A stretch of 20,276 nt of DNA, from UHGV virus genome UHGV-1757948; one strand, given 5' to 3'. Positions within the stretch are counted from its first letter, which is position 1; every line of letters starts with the position of its first letter. The notes under the pieces were generated by a model. That model saw nothing but the letters and a program-made list of their open reading frames with translations, was not told where the DNA came from and did no database searches. The position numbers and the translations under genes are program-made. This DNA comes from a virus. Below, in pieces: positions 3,925 to 16,652 of this stretch.

Positions 3925-4578
3925 ATGAGACGTATAAGAATAGGAAACGACATCATTCTGCGCATAAGGCTTACACGCCGTGGCGGTGCAGAGAACCTCG
4001 AGGGAAAGAAAATAGGTCTTATGCTGCGCAACATTCTCGGCAGTGTGAGCCTTCTTGTAGTACAGTCAGGAGGGGAGCTGATAGCAGGATGGCAGGGCAC
4101 ACAGCAGCAGTGGACAGGTGCGTATACAGTGACACTCACAGAGGATTGGGGCGAGAACAACCGCAACACCGTGGATGAGGCATGCGCCTTCGAGCTTGTG
4201 TCAATAAGCAGCGACGAGGGTGTGGAGACCGGCACCGTGAACATCGAGCTTGACATGGACATCAGCGTGCCGGGCAACGGTCTGTCCGCCTATGAGATAG
4301 CCGTGCTGCACGGCTTTGAGGGCACAGAAGAAGAATGGCTGGAGAGTTTAAAGCCCGACACGAGTAATTTTGTGACAACCGAACAAGTAGCGGAAGACTA
4401 TCAGCCAAAGGGAGATTATGTTACAGAAGCACCTAAGGATGGGAAAAACTATGTACGGAAAGATGGAAGCTGGACTGAGTTTGCAGGAAGTGGAAAAGCT
4501 AATGCCTTTTTTTCGAATAATATCCTTAAATTTGAGAGCGGAGGAGCACAATTTAACAACAACATATTAATAATTTGA
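3925..4578 (+). CDS. Phage tail-fibre protein (BppU-like N-terminal motif; C-terminal YQPKGDY repeats)
   Basis: The start ATG at 3925 has an SD (aAAGGAGacagaccATG); the track's 3892 start lacks an RBS. It contains GNGLSAYEIAVLHGFEGTEEEWLESLK, the characteristic SAYEIAV-GF-GTE-EWL-SLKG motif of Gram-positive phage tail-fibre/baseplate proteins. A sharp GC drop at ~4340 occurs inside the gene. Confidence 0.7.
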   Translation: MRRIRIGNDIILRIRLTRRGGAENLEGKKIGLMLRNILGSVSLLVVQSGGELIAGWQGTQQQWTGAYTVTLTEDWGENNRNTVDEACAFELVSISSDEGVETGTVNIELDMDISVPGNGLSAYEIAVLHGFEGTEEEWLESLKPDTSNFVTTEQVAEDYQPKGDYVTEAPKDGKNYVRKDGSWTEFAGSGKANAFFSNNILKFESGGAQFNNNILII

Positions 4579-4580
4579 TT

Positions 4581-5315
4581 ATGTCAGAAAAAATTAGCCA
4601 AATTCAGATTAACGCCGACGTCAGAGATATAGAAGACGCGCAGGCATTACACAAAGGTGATAGTTTAGGCACAATAAATGGACAGTCTTTTAATGAAGGT
4701 AATGACTTAAACATTGAAGTTGGTACCAATGATTACAATGCCCTTAAAAACAAGCCACAAATAAACGGACATGAGTTGTCTGGGAATAAATCAGCAAAAG
4801 ATTTAGGCTTACAAGAAGCAGGTGACTATGTAACTCCCGAAGATATACCCGATGTGAGCGAACTGGCAACAAAGACAGAATTGGCAGAAGGACTGGAAGG
4901 CAAGCAGCCAAAGGGTGATTATGCCACAAAGGCAGAAATACCAGATGTGAGTGGATTTATTACCTCTTCACAAGCGGAAGAAAAATATCAGCCGAAAGGA
5001 ACTTATGTCACCACGACTGAACTATCTAAAAAGGCAGATAAAATCGCAACCGAAAATGTAGCCGAAACTACAAAGGAATTGCAACCGAACAAGTATTACA
5101 TATTTGGCGAAGTTGCCACACTTACCATAACTCTTGCAGCAGGAGAAGAAAATGTCCTTGCTGAATACATGTTTGAGTTTACAAGCGGCACAACTCCAAC
5201 AATATTGTCACTGCCCGAGGACGTTAAATGGATAGGTGAAAGCACGATTGAGGCAAGCAAGACATATCAAGTGAGCATCGTCAATAATATAGCAGTCATG
5301 GGAGGTGCAGCATGA
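4581..5315 (+). CDS. Phage tail-fibre repeat protein
   Basis: The ATG at 4581 lies just after the stop of the preceding gene. The protein has repeated YxPKGDYVT..IPDVS motifs (E.YQPKGDY / KQPKGDYATKAEIPDVS / KYQPKGTYVTTTEL) shared with the C-terminus of the preceding protein. The coding sequence is AT-rich. Confidence 0.6.
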   Translation: MSEKISQIQINADVRDIEDAQALHKGDSLGTINGQSFNEGNDLNIEVGTNDYNALKNKPQINGHELSGNKSAKDLGLQEAGDYVTPEDIPDVSELATKTELAEGLEGKQPKGDYATKAEIPDVSGFITSSQAEEKYQPKGTYVTTTELSKKADKIATENVAETTKELQPNKYYIFGEVATLTITLAAGEENVLAEYMFEFTSGTTPTILSLPEDVKWIGESTIEASKTYQVSIVNNIAVMGGAA

Positions 5316-6001
5316 GCATATACAGACGCAGGCTTATGATAGCCAACACACTTAAAAAGAGTGACAGCAACATAAATTATCCTGGACTTATTGCAGCATG
5401 GTCGGCAGCAGGAAAGAGCAATGACGATGCTGATAGAAACGTGTTGCACGATTTGACGGGTAATGGGCTTGACATTACGCTGAACGGCTTTGCGTTCAAT
5501 ACAGAAGGAAGTGGCTATGGACATCCCGAATACCCCGATGCTCTTGTCTTTGACGGAGTGGATGATTACGGTATTAATGAGGAAATGCCGATATTGACTG
5601 ATTATACGGTTATTGTTAAGAGAGAAATATTTAGTGGCGGATTATATTCTCATGTAATCGGAAAACGTACAGGCTCTATACCGGGAGCTTTTTGGTTTGA
5701 AAGAGGTAAAGGAGATACTCATAGCTTTGGAATGGCTAATTCAATCAATATATTAAATGAAAGTATATCTTGGCAGTCCACGACAAGCTATAACGGGACA
5801 CCTATAGAAAAAGGTGAAGCTGAGGATATTCATGAATTAACGATAGGTGTAGCAAGCAAAACATATCCAGATTTTAGGGGTATGGCTTTCTACTCCGCCT
5901 ACCTCTTTGACCGCTCATTGGGTGAGCAGGAGATAAAGTCATTTATTAGAAAGTATATAGACGCAGACTATCTGTTACCGAGTGAACAAACAACAGAATA
6001 A
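5312..6001 (+). CDS. Putative receptor-binding protein with a concanavalin-A/LamG-like lectin fold
   Basis: The ATG overlaps the upstream stop (ATGA) and is preceded by GGAGG. The beta-rich composition and the pattern (LVFDGVDDYG...TVIVKRE...GAFWFERGKGDTHSFGM...TIGVASKTYPDFRGMAFYSAYLFDRSL) are typical of jelly-roll lectin domains at the distal end of tail fibres. This assignment is inferred from composition and pattern only. Confidence 0.45.
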   Translation: MSIYRRRLMIANTLKKSDSNINYPGLIAAWSAAGKSNDDADRNVLHDLTGNGLDITLNGFAFNTEGSGYGHPEYPDALVFDGVDDYGINEEMPILTDYTVIVKREIFSGGLYSHVIGKRTGSIPGAFWFERGKGDTHSFGMANSINILNESISWQSTTSYNGTPIEKGEAEDIHELTIGVASKTYPDFRGMAFYSAYLFDRSLGEQEIKSFIRKYIDADYLLPSEQTTE

Positions 6002-8672: not shown

Positions 8673-9302
8673 ATGACAGACGGTGTGCCCGTCTTAAATT
8701 TAAATTATATGGCAAAGATAAATAATAATTTTGAGAAACGAAAACGCATCACGAAAAATGAAGCGTTGGAACTGCTAAAAGATTGTTATGAGGACATCTT
8801 CAAGGCGTATTACGCAGGTCTGGAAAATTACAATGAAGAAATAAATATGACCATACCTGAAGCAAGGACAAGGCTTGTAGGTCCTTTGCTTAACGCAAAA
8901 ATAACAGAGAGTTTCATTCTCACATTTCCCGAGAACTGGAACAAAGGCAAATACGGAAGGATAATATTCAGATGGAACGGTGTGCTCATGCTCATCAAGA
9001 AATTGAACAAGAATGACAAGCCGTCTTACATTCCGACAATACTTTCAGATTCGATTGTCAACCAATACCAATTACCGCTTTTCCAAGGCGATGAAGGCAA
9101 GGAAGAGCCGATATTGATTTTCGGATATACAAAGGACGGTTTCGGGCAGCTCGTAAACCCGAGAATTGTCTTGTATGACGATGGGGTTCAATGGACTGCC
9201 TATATGGAAGACGGTGTAAATATGCCGACTGCCAATACAGACACGCAGGAGATTATTGTCCGCCTGAAAAAGAAAGAGACAGGAGAAAAGAAGGCAGAAT
9301 AA
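8673..9302 (+). CDS. Hypothetical protein (209 aa, low GC, no SD; alternative start at M13 = 8709); unknown partner of the HTH-ImmA regulator
   Basis: A long ORF with coding-like composition on the same strand as, and 52 nt upstream of, the HTH-ImmA gene. No recognisable motif was found. Confidence 0.5.
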   Translation: MTDGVPVLNLNYMAKINNNFEKRKRITKNEALELLKDCYEDIFKAYYAGLENYNEEINMTIPEARTRLVGPLLNAKITESFILTFPENWNKGKYGRIIFRWNGVLMLIKKLNKNDKPSYIPTILSDSIVNQYQLPLFQGDEGKEEPILIFGYTKDGFGQLVNPRIVLYDDGVQWTAYMEDGVNMPTANTDTQEIIVRLKKKETGEKKAE

Positions 9303-9354: not shown

Positions 9355-10410
9355 ATGAAATGTGAGCAGCTAACATTCGCAAGGGAATACAGGGGATTTA
9401 CGCAAACCGCACTCGCGGCAAAAGTCAAAGGGCTATCGCAATCCAACCTGTCAAAATATGAAAAGGGGTTTGGCGGGCTGTCAGACAACATGCTTAGTTT
9501 GATTATGTCCACGCTTGATTTTCCGATGAAATTCCTTGACATGAATATTGTGAACAAGGTTGACAGCAAGCATTACAGGAAAAAGGCAACCATAACCGTA
9601 AAGACACGCAACGAGATAGACAGGACAATATCCCTGATTGCGTATTGTTTTGATTGGCTTAGTGAATTTGTCGAGATACCTGACTATTCATTTGGATACT
9701 ACGACATGGACAACGGCATAAGCCCGGAGGAACTTGCCGGGCACATAAGGAACAAATACAGGCTCGGCATGTCGCCTATATCCGATATTTGCAATTTCCT
9801 TGAGCGCAATGGGGTATTCATTTACATGTGGGACAGTCCTAACGACGAGTTTGACGGGGTATCCCTGATAACTGACGCAGGCAATCATCTTATCATTGTG
9901 AACAGGAACAGAAGCAACGACAGGGTAAGGTTTACGCTTGCACATGAGCTGGGACACATACTGATGCACGAGTGCCCAAGTTTCCCGGTATTCAGCATTA
10001 GAGACAAGGAGAAAGAGGCGAACGCTTTTGCATCAGAGTTCCTTCTCCCCTCCCAGGCTGTCAGAAACGCCTTGCACAATGTCAGGCTCGGACAGTTCCC
10101 TGAGCTGAAACGGTATTGGCTTGTTTCCATGGCATCACTTTTGGAAAAGGCAAAAAACATAAACGCCATTGCAAGTGAGAAGTACAAGTCTATGAGAATG
10201 GAGTTCAGCAGACGCCATTGGAATAAGAAAGAACCTTACGAAGTGCCTATTGACAGCCCTACCGTCTTTGAGCAGGCATATAGGCTGGTATCGGACACAT
10301 TGGGGTATTCAATCAGCATGATTTCGGAAAGCACAGGCTTGCCCGAGGATGTCTTGATAAAGATATTCGGCAAATCTGCGAGGATAATATCATTAAAGCC
10401 ACTAATATAA
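9355..10410 (+). CDS. XRE-family HTH fused to an ImmA/IrrE-family (COG2856) zinc metallopeptidase
   Basis: The N-terminus has an HTH_XRE signature (FTQTALAAKVKGLSQSNLSKYEKG). The central region has the HEXXH zinc motif in ImmA-like context (FTLAHELGHILMHE). Confidence 0.85.
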   Translation: MKCEQLTFAREYRGFTQTALAAKVKGLSQSNLSKYEKGFGGLSDNMLSLIMSTLDFPMKFLDMNIVNKVDSKHYRKKATITVKTRNEIDRTISLIAYCFDWLSEFVEIPDYSFGYYDMDNGISPEELAGHIRNKYRLGMSPISDICNFLERNGVFIYMWDSPNDEFDGVSLITDAGNHLIIVNRNRSNDRVRFTLAHELGHILMHECPSFPVFSIRDKEKEANAFASEFLLPSQAVRNALHNVRLGQFPELKRYWLVSMASLLEKAKNINAIASEKYKSMRMEFSRRHWNKKEPYEVPIDSPTVFEQAYRLVSDTLGYSISMISESTGLPEDVLIKIFGKSARIISLKPLI

Positions 10411-10492: not shown

Positions 10493-11002
10493 ATGGGAAG
10501 ATTTAAAGGATTGCTTGTGGTAGTATCGGTGTTGTTGACCGCATCATTATGCGTCAACATACTCCAGTGCAGTAATGCCGGAAAGAAAACAACGAATCAG
10601 GACACAGTACGGACTACATATATAGACACCATTCCGTTCTTGAATCCTGTACCCAAAGACAGTACGGTGATACGGTATGTTACGGAGACGTTGCCCGTGA
10701 CTTGCCGCAAAGACACGATATACGAAGAGAAGGGCGGGAATACAGGCGACAGCGTCAAGGTGACACTGCCTATAACTTCCAAAGTCTATAAGGACAGTAC
10801 CTATACCGCATACGTGAGCGGATTCCGCGCGAATCTTGACAGTATATTTGTATATCCGAGACACGAGACTGTAACTGTCACAAGGTACAAGGAAAGTCCG
10901 CGCCTTGGCGTCGGTATTGCCGCAGGTTACGGTATAGGGAAAGACATGAAACCGACACCTTTCATAGGAATATCCGTATATTATAGGCTTTGGCAGTGGT
11001 AG
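10493..11002 (+). CDS. Secreted lipoprotein (signal peptide with lipobox LTASLC); candidate superinfection-exclusion or surface protein
   Basis: The N-terminus (MGRFKGLLVVVSVLLTASLC) fits a signal peptide plus L-[AS]-[GAS]-C lipobox. The mature part is Y/T/K-rich and beta-like. The overlapping antisense ORF 10547..11137 is Cys/Arg-rich junk. Confidence 0.55.
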   Translation: MGRFKGLLVVVSVLLTASLCVNILQCSNAGKKTTNQDTVRTTYIDTIPFLNPVPKDSTVIRYVTETLPVTCRKDTIYEEKGGNTGDSVKVTLPITSKVYKDSTYTAYVSGFRANLDSIFVYPRHETVTVTRYKESPRLGVGIAAGYGIGKDMKPTPFIGISVYYRLWQW

Positions 11003-11208: not shown

Positions 11209-11599
11209 CAGATTCCTCCTTTTCTGAGTTTATAGATACGAACAATCTCTCGTAGTCATCACAACTGATTTCAAAGCAGTTCTGACTTATTACTCCGTCA
11301 GAATCCCCGAAAACGTAAAACGGGGTATACGGACTGTATGTCTTCAGGACACCCACATCCTTTTTGTTGTCCTGCCTGTGTCTGATATAGAACCAGTAAT
11401 GAGGTCTTTTGTAACCGACACACCATAGCAGCATAAGGACAAACAACAAGAAGAAAAAACAGAAAAACCATTTCGGCAGGAAAACGTCAATCAGAAAGAA
11501 TGTAACCCATGCCGTTACCATTACGGCGAAAGCCTCAAAAGATGTCTTGTAATCAAAATTTTTCATTTTCATAATATGTTTAATATTTCTTATTCCCAT
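11189..11599 (-). CDS. Small membrane protein (2 TM); alternative start at MKMKNFD (11572)
   Basis: Two hydrophobic helices (AFAVMVTAWVTFFLIDVF; FFCFFFLLFVLMLLWCVGY) and an acidic C-terminus. The coding sequence is AT-rich and overlaps the neighbouring genes at both ends. Confidence 0.45.
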   Translation of the reverse strand: MGIRNIKHIMKMKNFDYKTSFEAFAVMVTAWVTFFLIDVFLPKWFFCFFFLLFVLMLLWCVGYKRPHYWFYIRHRQDNKKDVGVLKTYSPYTPFYVFGDSDGVISQNCFEISCDDYERLFVSINSEKEESDDTDAK

Positions 11600-12134
11600 G
11601 CTTAAATGGGCGGAGTCTGTTATAGCGCATCTTCTGCTCGACGTAGAAGTCGATGTCGATATCGTTTTGGTGGCAGAATAAGATAATGAGGGCTACAGTG
11701 AGATTGATTTTTTCGCAAAGGGCTTCCTTATATAAACAAAGTCCCTCACAAAGATGGTACATGACGACGGGGAATGGCTCATTAATGAATTTTGCGTCTG
11801 AAGCAAGAAACTCGTCAACGTAATGCAGGGATATTCCGCGCAGTGCAGCCAAGTCCAAACAGCGTATGATGATGTCGCTAAGTTCATCCTCAACCGAGTT
11901 TTTGACGTGTGTCTCAAATTCATACTTAAATACAACGTCGTCATCGGCGTATGTTCCAAGTAATGCTTTGAAAAGGTCAATGTCCGTGTGCCTGTCCTTG
12001 CGGTCTGCCTGTACAGCTTCAGATATCTCAGTAATGATAAGCATCAAATAAGTTTCGTCAGGCAGTTCTTCATCGTGCCATCCGTGCGTCTTTGCGGTCT
12101 CAAAAACTGCTTTTGATAATTTAGTCAAATCCAT
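11580..12134 (-). CDS. Hypothetical protein, tentatively MazG-like all-alpha NTP pyrophosphohydrolase
   Basis: It has MazG/dimeric-dUTPase-like acidic helix motifs (ITEISEAVQADRKD ... ELSDIIIRCLDLAALRGISL). The assignment is pattern-based only. Confidence 0.35.
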   Translation of the reverse strand: MDLTKLSKAVFETAKTHGWHDEELPDETYLMLIITEISEAVQADRKDRHTDIDLFKALLGTYADDDVVFKYEFETHVKNSVEDELSDIIIRCLDLAALRGISLHYVDEFLASDAKFINEPFPVVMYHLCEGLCLYKEALCEKINLTVALIILFCHQNDIDIDFYVEQKMRYNRLRPFKHGNKKY

Positions 12135-12934: not shown

Positions 12935-13191
12935 TGCTGACCTCCTTTCTTCAAATCATTCAAAGCCTTGTCATTGCAGCTTTTACAAAACAATTTATTG
13001 AGAGTTCCTTTTAGCATGACTAAATAGACATCATCGTCATCCTTGAACTTGCGGTTGCAATTAAAACAAAGCCTTTGAACATAAAGCCCTATACTTTCTC
13101 TCGACTTGCGGAACTGCCAGAATTTCAAGAATGGCTTATCAACAGCGTTTAGTACCTCGTATTCACGTTTGGTGATTTTCACTACTTTCAT
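12931..13191 (-). CDS. Small zinc-ribbon protein (CxxC...CxxC)
   Basis: An SD (gAAAGGAGGtataaaATG) is present and the stop overlaps the downstream gene start. It has CFNC and CKSC pairs. Confidence 0.5.
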   Translation of the reverse strand: MKVVKITKREYEVLNAVDKPFLKFWQFRKSRESIGLYVQRLCFNCNRKFKDDDDVYLVMLKGTLNKLFCKSCNDKALNDLKKGGQQ

Positions 13192-13562
13192 TTTATACCT
13201 CCTTTCAGTAGCTCTGGGTTGTCGTGGATGTTGCCGATTATCGTTGCTTTATCGGTAGGAAGGAAGCCTAATCTTTCAATACCTCCGATAAAAGAGCATT
13301 CAGAATCACTATATTCCACATCCACAATATCTCCGTCTGGAAATTGAATAATATCCCCTTCGTAAATCTCCTTCCCCTTTTTATCATACAAGCCTGTGAA
13401 CTGGCTTACGGTGGAGGGGGCGATTTCTCGTTTCCACACGGCATTAGAGCTGTCGCTCTTTTCGAGAATGTTGCAGTCTCCGTCCGCCCATATTAAAAGC
13501 GAACCATAGCACCACTCATCGTTTGCAAGGCGTTTGCCTCTGAACTTGATTGCTCGTTTCAT
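13188..13562 (-). CDS. YopX-family phage protein
   Basis: MKRAIKFRGKR...WCYG...VSQFTGLYDKKGKEIYEGDII...IIGNIHDNPELL matches the YopX (SPbeta) family pattern. An SD (gAAAGGAGGtgcggtcATG) is present. Confidence 0.7.
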   Translation of the reverse strand: MKRAIKFRGKRLANDEWCYGSLLIWADGDCNILEKSDSSNAVWKREIAPSTVSQFTGLYDKKGKEIYEGDIIQFPDGDIVDVEYSDSECSFIGGIERLGFLPTDKATIIGNIHDNPELLKGGIK

Positions 13563-13870
13563 GACCGCACCTCCTTTCCGTCGGACAGAAGGTCGTCAAG
13601 ATAGGCGAACTTGTCAACCTCTCCCCATAATCGTTCAAACGACAGGTCGCGCAGGTCTTTGTAGACAGCGGCATTCCCGTTCTTGAATAAGACGAGTGTC
13701 TTGCGCTTAGGTTGGCAAGATACAGTGCCGTTGTGCCACACGGCGTTGATGCGCCAGTTGGCACCATCTATAAACCCATGTTCATAATACGGCACGTATT
13801 TTGGATTGAAGATGCTGTTGTCAATAACACAACTTTCTGTTGCCGCCTTTTCAATCTGTTCTCTTGTCAT
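13559..13870 (-). CDS. Hypothetical protein (103 aa)
   Basis: An ORF in the operon whose stop overlaps the YopX gene start by 4 nt. Confidence 0.5.
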   Translation of the reverse strand: MTREQIEKAATESCVIDNSIFNPKYVPYYEHGFIDGANWRINAVWHNGTVSCQPKRKTLVLFKNGNAAVYKDLRDLSFERLWGEVDKFAYLDDLLSDGKEVRS

Positions 13871-13903: not shown

Positions 13904-14068
13904 TTATCTTGTGATTTTAGAGGAAATTTTCCTTGTATTTCCTTTGTTTTCCTTTGCCAAACACTCATTGCCACATCTTCTGCCCACGTCGTACTTATCG
14001 CACCATCCGTCTCCGTAGAAGCCTTCGTTAATGAAGTGGATACATGAGCCGCAGTGTCTTGCTTTCAT
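13904..14068 (-). CDS. Small Cys-rich zinc-ribbon-like protein (54 aa), translationally coupled to the PP-loop enzyme gene
   Basis: The translation is MKARHCGSCIHFINEGFYGDGWCDKYDVGRRCGNECLAKENKGNTRKISSKITR. Its ATG overlaps the upstream stop as ATGA at 14065-14068. It is absent from the 60-aa ORF track. Confidence 0.35.
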   Translation of the reverse strand: MKARHCGSCIHFINEGFYGDGWCDKYDVGRRCGNECLAKENKGNTRKISSKITR

Positions 14069-14982
14069 TTTTCGTCGTCTTTAAATTCAAATTTCTGTTG
14101 CAGGAACTCGTCAGCGTAGAACTGCTTGTAGCTCTTGTCGCTTATCCACCACCTAAAGCCTGTTTCAGCGTCGTTGAAATTGTGGTCGATATATCCGTTG
14201 TCTATCAGCCATTGGATTGTCTTTATCCAATTGCGTTTGACGTGCGGCCAGCGTTTAGCATCTTCCTTCTTTATCCGTGCGTTCGACATAGGGCAACAGA
14301 TGCAGCCAATGCGTGTATAACCCTCGTCGTAGAGTTCGCAGTGTGGTATGCCGTTCATGTTAAGGAACTCCCACACGTCGCGCTCCGTCCAATAGATTAT
14401 GGGCGATACAAGGATTTTGTCCTTACCGCCGACACACGCAACCATGCTCTCCTCATGTTCGCTCCATTGGTCAAAGGTTTCCTCATTGCGCTTGCCCTTT
14501 ATCTCTGTGGATATTTCCTCACGTTTTGCACGCCGTGCGCTTTCTTCTTTTCTCACACCGATAAGTGTCACCTTGCCAACGCCTGACGTTTCCTTGAACT
14601 CGGCACAACACCAACGCAAAGTCCTTGTCGGCAAGATGTGCTTTTTCTTCGCCATTTCGTAAATGCTCATCCGTGGTTTGATTAGCTCCACATCGGGGTA
14701 TTGCGTCTTGACGAAGCGGATGACTTCGGGCGGGTCTATGCTCGTAAGGTTCATGTGAGCCTTGAAGCGGACACCGGCCAGCTTTGCGACATGGTAGAGG
14801 CATTGGCTGTCCTTGCCGCCACTGAACGCAAGGTAAAAGCCGTTTTCGGGGTCGAGGCGCAACGCCATTTTCTCCGACTTCCGCAAAAGTTCGACGGAGT
14901 GTTCCAGCTTCCTTGCAAGCGGACGGCTTACCTTTGACATTACGGTGTCGTGGTCAAGCAGTATTATTTCACACGCTTTCAT
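14065..14982 (-). CDS. PAPS-reductase family / PP-loop ATPase protein (DndC/IbrA/CysH-like; tRNA-thiolase-like alternative not excluded)
   Basis: It has the PP-loop FSGGKDS, the RWCCAEFK motif and a C-terminal GCICCP Cys cluster. Its ATG at 14982 is coupled (ATGA) to the upstream small ORF. Confidence 0.8.
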   Translation of the reverse strand: MKACEIILLDHDTVMSKVSRPLARKLEHSVELLRKSEKMALRLDPENGFYLAFSGGKDSQCLYHVAKLAGVRFKAHMNLTSIDPPEVIRFVKTQYPDVELIKPRMSIYEMAKKKHILPTRTLRWCCAEFKETSGVGKVTLIGVRKEESARRAKREEISTEIKGKRNEETFDQWSEHEESMVACVGGKDKILVSPIIYWTERDVWEFLNMNGIPHCELYDEGYTRIGCICCPMSNARIKKEDAKRWPHVKRNWIKTIQWLIDNGYIDHNFNDAETGFRWWISDKSYKQFYADEFLQQKFEFKDDEK

Positions 14983-15113: not shown

Positions 15114-15260
15114 CTAATCGTCTACAATGGCTTTTGCTAAACCGAAGAGAAGGATATATATTCCTAACATGAGCAGTACCCATGGGAAACTTGTCAACAT
15201 CCATATAGAGGCTGCCACGCAAAGTGCACCGGCATGGATGATTAGTTCAGTTCTGTTCAT
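15114..15260 (-). CDS. Small membrane protein (48 aa)
   Basis: The translation is MNRTELIIHAGALCVAASIWMLTSFPWVLLMLGIYILLFGLAKAIVDD. Its ATG overlaps the radical-SAM gene stop as ATGA. Confidence 0.3.
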   Translation of the reverse strand: MNRTELIIHAGALCVAASIWMLTSFPWVLLMLGIYILLFGLAKAIVDD

Positions 15261-16162
15261 TGCTTCATATTTTTAAGTTTGTAACTATTCTCATTAAGCC
15301 ACTTTTGGAAATACCATAACTGACCGCATCCGCCACCTATATCGTCTTGCCCTGCCGGGTTAAATACTCTCGTATTAAAACCTACGTCATTCATCTTTGA
15401 ATTAAAGTCACGGATTAAGTCAAGTTGTCGCTGTATTGATGAATGTACACTTTCATCCTTTTCGCAAATAACAGACAAAGTGACCTCCCATATATCAGGG
15501 TTAAATAATTCAGAGAGCCTCATAGCATCTTCCATATCATTATTCCCGACATGTACGCAATAATTAAAGAAAGGCTTTCTTCCGACATAAGAAGCCCAAA
15601 ACTCACCCGTAGAAGCTATTTGCCGAAGTGTTGACGTATTCGTTGCTATAAGTTTCTTCCTTTTTTCATCTGTACTTTCATGTACTGAAAATTGAAGACC
15701 TACTTTATCTATTTCTTTCGATAGTGCAATAAAATCAGACATGTATAAATACATCATGTGAGGGGCAGAAGTGCTTACAAGAAGTTGTGCGTTTGGATAT
15801 TTCACATGTAGACTTTCTATTGCAGGCTGCAATGCCGAGTAGTTGTAAAAAGGCTCTCCCATGCTCATAAACATAATTTGGAACTTTTTAATGTCATCAG
15901 TGCGGCAATCAATAGTAGATAATGCCCCATCAATCTGTTGTATTATTTCGTCAGTAGAAAGATTTCTGACAAAAAATTTGCCTGTTCCGCAGAAAGAACA
16001 TCCAACTGGACAACCGCTTTGAACCGAACAACATATAACTGTCCTTTTTTTGTATTCTCCATATCTATAAAGAACAGTTTCAGCAATAGCATTTGGCTTG
16101 TCCCACTCAAACACGAATTTCTTTACATTCGTATCACTTGATTCAAATACTTTTGTTTTCAT
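15257..16162 (-). CDS. RlmN/Cfr-family radical SAM methyltransferase homologue, minimal form lacking the N-terminal accessory domain
   Basis: The radical-SAM CX3CX2C is in RlmN context: ICCSVQSGCPVGCSFCGTG versus RlmN LCVSSQVGCALECKFC, including the upstream catalytic Cys. It also has FMSMGEPFYN (versus MGMGEPLLN), LVSTSA and the C-terminal catalytic motif DIGGGCGQL (versus DIDAACGQL). The gene is strongly AT-rich (~38% GC) relative to its neighbours. Confidence 0.85.
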   Translation of the reverse strand: MKTKVFESSDTNVKKFVFEWDKPNAIAETVLYRYGEYKKRTVICCSVQSGCPVGCSFCGTGKFFVRNLSTDEIIQQIDGALSTIDCRTDDIKKFQIMFMSMGEPFYNYSALQPAIESLHVKYPNAQLLVSTSAPHMMYLYMSDFIALSKEIDKVGLQFSVHESTDEKRKKLIATNTSTLRQIASTGEFWASYVGRKPFFNYCVHVGNNDMEDAMRLSELFNPDIWEVTLSVICEKDESVHSSIQRQLDLIRDFNSKMNDVGFNTRVFNPAGQDDIGGGCGQLWYFQKWLNENSYKLKNMKQ

Positions 16163-16368
16163 TTGCCGTATGTTTTTGTTTTCTTGGGTTTGTAACTATC
16201 GGTTTCTTCGTCCCACTCCACGCAGTCGGGGCAGTAGAGTTTGCCGTCGATTTCTTCCCAATCGCACATCTTCGCCATATACCTTGCCATACCTTCACTA
16301 AATTCATAGCCATGCTTACTTCCGCACCCGTCGCACACGGCTTGGTACATCGTCACTTTCTGTTTCAT
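16159..16368 (-). CDS. Small zinc-finger protein (CDGC...CPDC)
   Basis: A 69-aa protein with two CxxC pairs. Its stop overlaps the radical-SAM gene start (ATGA). Confidence 0.5.
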   Translation of the reverse strand: MKQKVTMYQAVCDGCGSKHGYEFSEGMARYMAKMCDWEEIDGKLYCPDCVEWDEETDSYKPKKTKTYGK

Positions 16369-16370
16369 AA

Positions 16371-16652
16371 TCAGTAATATCTTATTACATCTTGATTCAT
16401 TAAAGCTTTCATAAAAGACTCCTTTTCTTCATCTGTGGCTTTCCTTACATTCGCACCCCAACAGAAGTTTCCCCATCCCGTACTTTTCTTGATTATACCG
16501 TCATTCCATCCAATCAAAATGCCGTATCCGTCACCATCTACATATCCGTTATGGATGAATACCCTTTGATTTTCGGGGTGGTATTTCGCAGATTCTTCAT
16601 TTGTTGGAATTCCATATAGGAACTCACCCACGTTATATTCACTTCTTTTCAT
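16371..16652 (-). CDS. Hypothetical protein (93 aa)
   Basis: An ORF in the coupled operon, overlapped by the upstream gene stop (ATGA at 16649-16652). Confidence 0.5.
   Translation of the reverse strand: MKRSEYNVGEFLYGIPTNEESAKYHPENQRVFIHNGYVDGDGYGILIGWNDGIIKKSTGWGNFCWGANVRKATDEEKESFMKALMNQDVIRYY

Follow-up and report, generated by a model that had tools for sequence, protein, structure and literature searches.

A 20,276-nucleotide stretch of the virus genome UHGV-1757948 (hereafter the window) carries on its minus strand, at positions 15257 to 16162, an open reading frame (ORF) whose 301-residue product resembles the radical S-adenosylmethionine (radical-SAM) enzymes RlmN and Cfr; we refer to it as the methylase, and its extent is exactly that proposed in an initial annotation made from the nucleotide sequence without database searches. 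The window is phage DNA, with genes for a 1230-aa tail-fibre-like protein and an endolysin and members of many PHROG families. The methylase gene is 100% identical in the 42,947 bp IMG/VR contig UViG_3300045988_136180, and the closest genomic relatives are held by metagenome-assembled genomes of Muribaculaceae and Bacteroidales; a nucleotide search with the window against the phage collection gave no match. The gene is embedded in a tightly packed minus-strand operon. The stop codon of a 69-aa upstream ORF overlaps the methylase initiation codon (ATGA), and the methylase stop codon overlaps the ATG of a 48-aa downstream ORF in the same way, so that the methylase is coupled at both ends to small flanking ORFs (Table 1). 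No terminator-like sites were predicted on the minus strand between positions 13744 and 17141, the stretch that holds the methylase.

Table 1. Features of the methylase gene and its immediate neighbours, with positions in the window.
Feature	Position	Strand	Remarks
Methylase ORF, class-A radical-SAM methyl synthase homologue (short RlmN/Cfr-like, phage clade), stand-alone	15257..16162	-	301 aa
CPVGCSFC (CxxxCxxC; C51/C55/C58), predicted radical-SAM [4Fe-4S] cluster motif	15989..16012	-	invariant in 43 relatives; aligns with the RlmN and Cfr cluster cysteines
C44-C45	16028..16033	-	both invariant in the close family
SMGEP, predicted SAM-binding 'GGE-type' motif (GMGEP in RlmN)	15851..15865	-	invariant; aligns with MGMGEP of RlmN and Cfr
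CGQL, C279	15317..15328	-	GGGCGQLW invariant; aligns with AACGQL of RlmN and Cfr
Cys-rich ORF upstream of the methylase	16159..16368	-	69 aa; weak DUF7569 / phrog_17873 match
Hydrophobic ORF downstream of the methylase, putative gene	15114..15260	-	48 aa
PP-loop protein, PAPS-reductase family (phrog_424, BrxP-like domain)	14065..14982	-	275 bp downstream of the methylase

The initial annotation described the product as a phage-borne member of the RlmN/Cfr superfamily with the family motifs in order, and profile searches, a search of the PDB and an alignment of 43 family sequences all agree with this. Among NCBIfam profiles the best match is the RlmN model TIGR00048 (E = 5.9e-28, 97.8 bits), to which methylase residues 5-282 align across profile positions 73-342 of 355, and the next five are Cfr/RlmN-type models at about 1e-20. 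The Pfam model PF04055 (Radical_SAM) scores 27.8 bits against a gathering threshold of 29.5, and precomputed PF04055 matches are present in many close relatives. The PDB sequence search returned RlmN and Cfr chains only (RlmN 6fz6, 2e-18; Cfr 9p0p, 1e-11; E. coli RlmN, 2e-10), and comparison of the predicted structure with solved structures likewise places RlmN and Cfr closest, the model having a partial TIM-barrel core with what appears to be the RlmN/Cfr-specific N-terminal beta extension. RlmN (E. coli 3RFA/5HR7, Sphaerobacter 6FZ6, TIGR00048) is thus the best match by profile, sequence and fold, and shares with the methylase the CxxxCxxC motif, a GMGEP-type motif, the equivalents of C118 and C355, and most of the core arginines and lysines. 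Placement in another radical-SAM family was considered (QueE and PFL-activase, which the initial annotation had named as possible homes for the protein, and viperin) and was rejected, with RlmN and Cfr clearly at the top by profile and fold; the profiles do not place the methylase with QueE or PFL-activase.

Both cysteines on which the RlmN/Cfr mechanism depends have counterparts. C44 stands seven residues ahead of the first cluster cysteine, as in RlmN, and is the positional equivalent of RlmN C118 and Cfr C105, through which the covalent intermediate of enzyme and substrate is resolved. C279 corresponds to RlmN C355 and Cfr C338, the methyl-carrying cysteine, and in the predicted structure pLDDT, the per-residue model confidence, falls below 50 at residues 277-279, as would be expected of a mobile C-terminal loop. 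The possibility that the CC pair and the CGQL cysteine were alignment artefacts can be set aside, since both are invariant in the 43-sequence family alignment on which we judged all motifs. Most sister clades keep C44, C51/C55/C58, SMGEP and C279, and C45 varies among them. Further invariant residues appear specific to the clade and are located where the barrel strands end at the active site (C45, C202, H204, C233, E234, W283 and W288); a second Fe-S cluster held by C45, C202 and C233, with H204, was entertained and rejected, as sister clades vary these positions independently, unlike a joint set of ligands. We conclude, as far as conservation can tell, that the machinery of radical-SAM motifs and two cysteines is unbroken and maintained by strong purifying selection, and that the gene is predicted to encode a class-A radical-SAM methyl synthase that is whole and stands alone, as opposed to a fragment in decay.

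What the protein does lack is the N-terminal accessory domain of about 80 aa that RlmN uses for RNA docking. Nothing in the methylase corresponds to some 80-84 residues at the N-terminus of E. coli RlmN, which bears out the absence of this domain that the initial annotation had described (with its length put at about 90 aa). Members of the RlmN/Cfr group share eight conserved basic residues in their core, of which the methylase retains five to six and has lost two: the equivalents of RlmN R206 and R344 are gone, and K94, R114, R141, R242 and R270 are kept.

Membership of the superfamily does not extend to orthology with either characterized enzyme. All curated cut-offs are missed, by 3-8 fold: the methylase reaches one third of the 290 bits set for the RlmN equivalog TIGR00048, and scores 76.6, 69.8 and 70.9 bits against the Cfr models NF000424, TIGR04432 and NF011024, whose cut-offs are 530, 550 and 468 bits. 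Its core is 25% identical to that of E. coli RlmN, and when the proteins are ordered by neighbour joining, those of full length, with N-terminal domains, fall together with E. coli RlmN and apart from the window clade. From the missed cut-offs, the core identity and the separate clade, the sequence comparisons indicate that the methylase is not an RlmN or Cfr orthologue.

These comparisons bear directly on what the enzyme might modify. RlmN is a dual-specificity C2-methyl synthase acting on 23S rRNA A2503 and tRNA A37, and Cfr is a C8-methyl synthase of 23S rRNA A2503 that gives resistance against phenicols, lincosamides, oxazolidinones and pleuromutilins as well as streptogramin A (PhLOPSA). 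The methylase could in principle be a Cfr-like resistance determinant, as the initial annotation had allowed, or a spare RlmN for A2503; its homology to both enzymes and the presence of all the catalytic residues would suit either. The Cfr active-site residues tied to C8 specificity include Y97, W101 and S103 (PMC12887959), of which Y97 is kept as Y34, and W101 and S103 are replaced by K38 and V42 (HMMER alignment, in which Q329 and F330 are not reliably mapped). The N-terminal helical lobe of Cfr (9P0P) is also absent, there is no resistance-gene context, and the clade is spread widely among T4-like and T5-like phages of strictly lytic habit. Moreover, the modification of A2503 precedes the completion of 50S subunit assembly, so that little benefit would be expected in a short lytic infection. 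With the profile scores and the separate clade also against it, we consider an A2503 methylase of either kind very improbable, and the suggestion of Cfr-like resistance finds no support.

The initial annotation also spoke of a truncated homologue, a description that does not fit the wider family. Searches with the window protein and with its homologue from Stenotrophomonas phage ANB28 each gave more than 5,500 database matches, and among the best 120 matches per query identities to the query are 69-98% and nearly all proteins are 293-320 aa long. Clustering at 50% identity yields 74 clusters with E<=1e-30, which grade into RlmN-like proteins near 1e-20, and at least 233 IMG/VR contigs, from 4 to 425 kb, carry a relative. 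Copies with about 50% identity are present in the cultured phages Arash (Salmonella), ANB28 and BUCTxx99 (Stenotrophomonas), JGB6 (Xanthomonas) and Ahp1 (Aeromonas) as well as in eight T5-like Vibrio phages, and the carriers span T5-like, T4-like and temperate phages. By its sequence, then, the methylase is typical of a very large phage-associated clade of strongly conserved proteins of about 290-320 aa. In full-text literature searches we found no description of a short RlmN-like enzyme from phages, and the annotations of relatives vary among 'hypothetical', 'RlmN', 'radical SAM, partial' and 'prohibitin family protein'. The homologues in JGB6 (L015 5001-6065) and BUCTxx99 (H2), for example, are entered in GenBank as 'prohibitin family protein' or 'SPFH/Band 7', an apparent mis-annotation; at the first of these loci ARAGORN also reports a permuted tmRNA-like element (L015 7542-7950).

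Beyond the clade itself there are more distant short relatives (P0282, P0288, P0326, P0340 and P0365), in some clades of which the C-terminal cysteine has been lost (CGQL to PGQL or similar) and serine or another residue occupies the C44 position; judging by these substitutions, the distant short clades that lack the cysteines probably no longer carry out RlmN-type chemistry. Structure matches in BFVD (A0A6J5RTK8 and B3FJU2) are short COG0820-like radical-SAM phage proteins with 15-20% identity, including one from the jumbo Pseudomonas phage 201phi2-1, and several independent short RlmN-like lineages may exist in viruses. The N-terminal extensions of P0243, P0245 and P0246 contain no Pfam domains and may be mis-called starts.

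To compare gene contexts, ORFs were called in 97 loci, clustered by BLASTP and grouped at 85% methylase identity into 56 lineages. A NAMPT-family gene (NAMPT/Namat) is the neighbour that recurs most often (12 of 56 lineages), a PRPP-synthetase-like gene (PRS/Adps) is found in 6-7 lineages, and NMNAT-Nudix, separate NMNAT and Nudix proteins, NadE, PncA/PncB and NADAR also recur. An NAD gene lies within 7 kb of the methylase in 16-17 of the lineages and within 1 kb in about 10. Several gene orders are seen (PRS-NAMPT-methylase, PRS-methylase-NAMPT, NAMPT-methylase, methylase-NAMPT and methylase-NadE), with the other flanking genes unrelated, and in 12 lineages, plus the fused or adjacent forms at loci L097 and L103, the methylase is in or beside an Adps/Namat or NAMPT/NMNAT operon. 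At one locus (L051) the methylase gene overlaps an Adps-like gene by 4 nt, and 31 nt beyond is a Namat-like gene whose product matches the crystal structure of phage Namat (9W5X, E=5e-104). A 44%-identical relative is situated 45 nt upstream of NAMPT, and for one that is 53% identical NAMPT stands 4 kb upstream, with an Acb2/Tad1-like gene 4.5 kb downstream. NAMPT and NMNAT come immediately after a 46%-identical relative that forms a fusion with a NUDIX domain; the NUDIX domain of the fusion protein P0250 gives weak matches to MutT/NudI/Dcp2-like proteins. A second NUDIX-fused protein (P0339) and an HD-fused one (P0324) are 34-35% identical relatives in bacterial contexts that are uninformative as to substrate.

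This linkage to phage NAD+ reconstitution (NARP) genes among the relatives is the strongest signal in the data, and one that lay beyond the view of the initial annotation. NAMPT-like genes occur in 4.0% of phage records, compared with 21% of methylase lineages within 7 kb; conversely, a methylase lies within 8 kb at 4 of 80 viral NAMPT loci, and close methylase relatives (at least 47% identity) are found in about 13 of 50,697 phage records. The methylase-NAMPT linkage is strongly enriched in both directions, and neither gene needs the other. The literature on NARP operons that we checked makes no mention of a radical-SAM gene.

Other observations made at these loci deserve description in their own right. 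Directly upstream of the Adps-like gene at L051 is an unrelated second radical-SAM protein of 273 aa (5093-5914, plus strand; Pfam Radical_SAM and Fer4_12). In 100-180 kb gut phage contigs (L034 9619-13411 and about 28 similar IMG/VR loci, L020-L050) a Preiss-Handler-like NAD+ salvage set, composed of an isochorismatase/PncA-like protein, the NAPRTase PncB, the NAD synthase NadE and two metallophosphoesterases, lies 2-5 kb downstream of the methylase and beside PolA and ThyX; such a PncA/PncB/NadE-type set is not among the NARP1-3 pathways in the NARP literature checked. In three lineages NADAR-domain proteins lie 0.5-5 kb from the methylase (L065 8398-8922, L076/L077 8758-9201 and L094 1494-1976). 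NADAR enzymes reverse ADP-ribosylation of nucleic-acid bases, and these neighbours add to the NAD/ADP-ribose theme.

There are parallels for accessory genes in such positions. Those inserted in NARP1 operons, the Macro-domain Adpp of NARP1-AP and the RyDEP glycosidase, are enzymes acting on ADP-ribose (ADPR) derivatives, and like the methylase relatives they are inserted in or beside Adps/Namat operons, in a minority of such operons. The likeness has limits, however: Adpp and RyDEP have unrelated folds and catalyze hydrolysis, whereas the methylase would carry out a radical methylation, and its action on an ADPR derivative is hypothetical. Unlike them, the methylase also accompanies NARP2-type and PncA/PncB/NadE-type sets, and mostly occurs without any NAD genes, as it does in the window, where a Pfam profile scan and the gene context revealed none.

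A second theme in the neighbourhoods is RNA. tRNA genes, RtcB or a CCA-adding enzyme are near the methylase in 17 of the 56 lineages, the tRNA genes themselves being within 7 kb in 11 and in several cases within 300-700 bp, including tRNA-Gln and tRNA-Arg. Both of these tRNAs are among the substrates of E. coli RlmN. In phages ANB28 and JGB6 the methylase is inside a tRNA gene cluster. CCA-adding enzymes and RtcB are each near it in three lineages and small metallophosphoesterases in about nine, several of them immediately upstream; one locus (L072) has the order phosphoesterase-methylase-RtcB, and in phage Arash an RNA ligase and a phosphoesterase are nearby. Both themes differ from the surroundings of E. 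coli rlmN, which adjoins the housekeeping genes ndk and rodZ. The arrangement of metallophosphoesterase, methylase and RtcB or RNA ligase recalls, as a functional analogy, the bacterial Pnkp/Hen1 system, which repairs RNA and then methylates it, and would fit a scheme of healing, marking by methylation and sealing. Hen1 is a classical 2'-O-methyltransferase and not a radical-SAM enzyme, and the window methylase lacks such RNA-repair neighbours; nor are there tRNA genes in the window.

These contexts raise the question of whether the methylase is a minimal RlmN-like C-methyltransferase for adenine in tRNA, or in another RNA of translation, acting at C2 or C8 of A37 in the anticodon loop of host tRNAs, phage tRNAs or both, so as to keep translation going or to resist cleavage, or re-cleavage, by host anticodon nucleases. 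The initial annotation listed tRNA remodelling against such nucleases among its possible roles, and it remains viable, drawing some support from the tRNA and RNA-repair neighbours of the relatives. The closest characterized relatives act on RNA, tRNA A37 included, the methylase keeps the two catalytic cysteines and most of the basic residues of the core, and the occurrence of the enzyme alone in temperate phages is what could be seen with a tRNA modifier; a macromolecular target would also suit slow turnover. On the other hand, the methylase has no N-terminal domain, large phages commonly have tRNA clusters so that 11 of 56 lineages may be near chance, and the linkage to NAMPT, NMNAT and Adps across subfamilies and the NUDIX fusion within an NAD operon are left unexplained. 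The hosts, moreover, already have RlmN, and a distinct site or regiochemistry must be assumed. Weighing these points, we regard a tRNA substrate as a serious possibility, if a rather doubtful one when taken by itself.

The chemistry can be sketched from the conserved residues and the precedent of RlmN and Cfr. A [4Fe-4S] cluster on C51, C55 and C58 would reductively cleave SAM, a second SAM would methylate C279, and the 5'-deoxyadenosyl radical would take a hydrogen from the S-methyl group of C279. The methylene radical so formed would attack an sp2 carbon in an aromatic base, C2 or C8 of adenine being the likeliest, and C44 would resolve the covalent adduct to leave a C-methyl group. By analogy with its relatives, the enzyme is probably a ping-pong methyl synthase and its chemistry the C-methylation of a ring carbon.

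As to what it is for, comparative context suggests that the methylase is probably an autonomous counter-defence or host-takeover accessory gene. In other phages it appears to be embedded in or beside NARP1 (Adps/Namat), NARP2 (NAMPT/NMNAT-Nudix) or PncA-PncB-NadE operons, or tRNA and RNA-repair genes, and its presence in a 43-kb temperate phage with no nearby NAD genes implies that its function must be useful alone. We tentatively suggest that its target could be a scarce adenine nucleotide related to NAD+ or ADP-ribose, for example an ADPR-type immune signal or a breakdown product, free or attached to a macromolecule; this is a reading that we think possible, short of probable. A substrate other than rRNA would fit the missing RNA-docking domain and the two lost core arginines (the R206 and R344 equivalents), and insertion between Adps and Namat, in the manner of Adpp and RyDEP, together with the NUDIX fusion favours an NAD/ADP-ribose nucleotide, whereas the homology to RlmN and Cfr favours RNA. 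An NAD/ADPR-related substrate is in our view slightly favoured over an anticodon-loop adenine of tRNA, which is a close second, and favoured over 23S rRNA, a preference that we hold weakly. The further claim that the phage clade comprises the first class-A methyl synthase to act on a nucleotide metabolite in place of rRNA or tRNA, at the adenine or, through like radical chemistry of the Minisci type, the pyridinium ring of an NAD+- or ADPR-derived molecule such as a cyclic ADPR signal of the TIR/Thoeris type or a non-canonical product of NAD+ breakdown, is on balance unlikely, though it merits statement: such an enzyme would be a new class of counter-defence enzyme in phages and would travel with NARP1, NARP2 and Preiss-Handler-type genes and yet would work alone, as in the temperate Bacteroidales phage of the window.

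Several considerations weigh against a substrate derived from NAD+ or ADPR. Radical-SAM methyl synthases are slow and consume two SAM per turnover, and catalysis of this kind makes the bulk NAD+ pool an implausible target, so that only scarce targets would fit. The characterized class-A enzymes all methylate RNA (A2503 of 23S rRNA and A37 of tRNA), and we know of no small-molecule substrate for any of them. The retention of five to six of the eight core basic residues points the same way. About 40 of the 56 lineages, the window among them, have no NAD gene nearby, and tRNA and RNA-repair neighbours (17 of 56) are as frequent as NAD neighbours. Because three chemically different NAD routes are accompanied, the enzyme cannot simply feed ADPR into NARP1. 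Counter-defence genes cluster in accessory regions, and adjacency may therefore mean a shared theme and not a shared pathway. Finally, the fused NUDIX domain is more like MutT, NudI and Dcp2 than like ADPR pyrophosphatases.

The local neighbour of the methylase in the window encodes a PP-loop protein of the PAPS-reductase family (Pfam PF01507, E=3e-22; PADLOC BrxP, E=2e-16; PHROG phrog_424; Table 1). Four lineages, among them a 44%-identical sister clade, have a gene of this type within 2 kb of the methylase (the additional loci are L018, L058/L008 and L105, the last being the P0273 locus, 44% identical), and it is missing from the closest relatives, which are 82% identical. The PAPS-reductase-family protein is thus a recurrent neighbour in temperate-type phages and a possible partner of the methylase. 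This context has a bearing on the proposal, also raised in the initial annotation, that the enzyme methylates DNA: methylating adenines of the phage DNA at C2 or C8, in a sequence-specific manner, could protect against restriction, possibly together with the PAPS-reductase/BrxP-like protein, whose fold family includes DndC and SspD of DNA phosphorothioation. The early or accessory region of a temperate phage is a usual site for DNA methyltransferases, a MazG-like gene lies 3 kb away, and distant relatives are fused to MutT-like NUDIX or dGTPase-like HD domains. Nevertheless, neither C-methyladenine in DNA nor a class-A enzyme with DNA as its substrate has a precedent, and base-pair geometry leads us to expect that a C2 or C8 methyl would destabilize A:T pairing. 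Few accessory genes of temperate phages are commoner than those for PAPS reductases, so that the adjacency may be chance, and the 82%-identical relatives do without one; the NAD and tRNA contexts of most other lineages do not fit either. DNA methylation thus draws a little contextual support from the PAPS-reductase neighbour, and we consider it improbable.

Two further ORFs of the same early operon, at 11580-12134 and 13188-13562 (both minus strand), give a weak, sub-threshold MazG-like match (E=8e-4) and a YopX protein; in some phages, nucleotide pyrophosphohydrolases of the MazG type go along with pathways of base modification. We also asked whether the methylase is a prophage-encoded defence gene, an idea that was rejected when the PADLOC defence-system models gave no match to it. 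Elsewhere in the window, downstream of the lysis genes, a 351-aa XRE/peptidase-M78 protein (9355-10410, plus strand) matches the PADLOC models of RmrA (E ~1e-59), the antitoxin-like component of the RosmerTA defence system. One of its unannotated neighbours, at 8673-9302 or 10493-11002 (both plus strand), may be a toxin partner, and if so the RmrA-like ORF and that neighbour would form a defence module carried by the phage.

The initial annotation had taken the base composition of the methylase gene as a sign of separate acquisition. With 36.6% GC overall and 31.1% at third codon positions (GC3) it lies below all the others among the window's 25 ORFs (window mean 47.2% GC), and it is indeed richer in AT than its flanks, although these are at 44-50% GC and not at 50-55% as had been estimated. 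Other ORFs are also low in GC (4575-6001 and 8673-9302 on the plus strand, and 16371-16652 on the minus strand), with GC3 values of 0.34-0.48 compared to about 0.55-0.7 in their neighbours. The phage genome is a mosaic in composition, with the methylase as one low-GC insertion among others; separate acquisition is plausible, in a window whose composition is mosaic overall.

The labels '23S rRNA (adenine2503-C2)-methyltransferase', 'RlmN' and 'prohibitin family protein' are unsupported for members of this clade, and our findings argue against scoring its genes as cfr-like resistance genes in viromes. The class-A radical-SAM methylases have so far comprised RlmN, a housekeeping enzyme, and Cfr, a clinically important resistance determinant, both of which act on RNA and have an N-terminal docking domain. 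The phage clade is a third class-A lineage that is very large, strongly conserved and phage-specific, lacking a docking domain and with its predicted catalytic apparatus intact, and its NAD+-operon and tRNA-repair neighbourhoods place it in the conflict over abortive-infection defences that work by NAD+ depletion and tRNA cleavage. Were its target derived from NAD+ or ADPR, the chemistry of the family would be extended and a new counter-defence mechanism added; were the target tRNA, the clade would represent a phage-encoded RNA C-methylase that protects or tunes translation.

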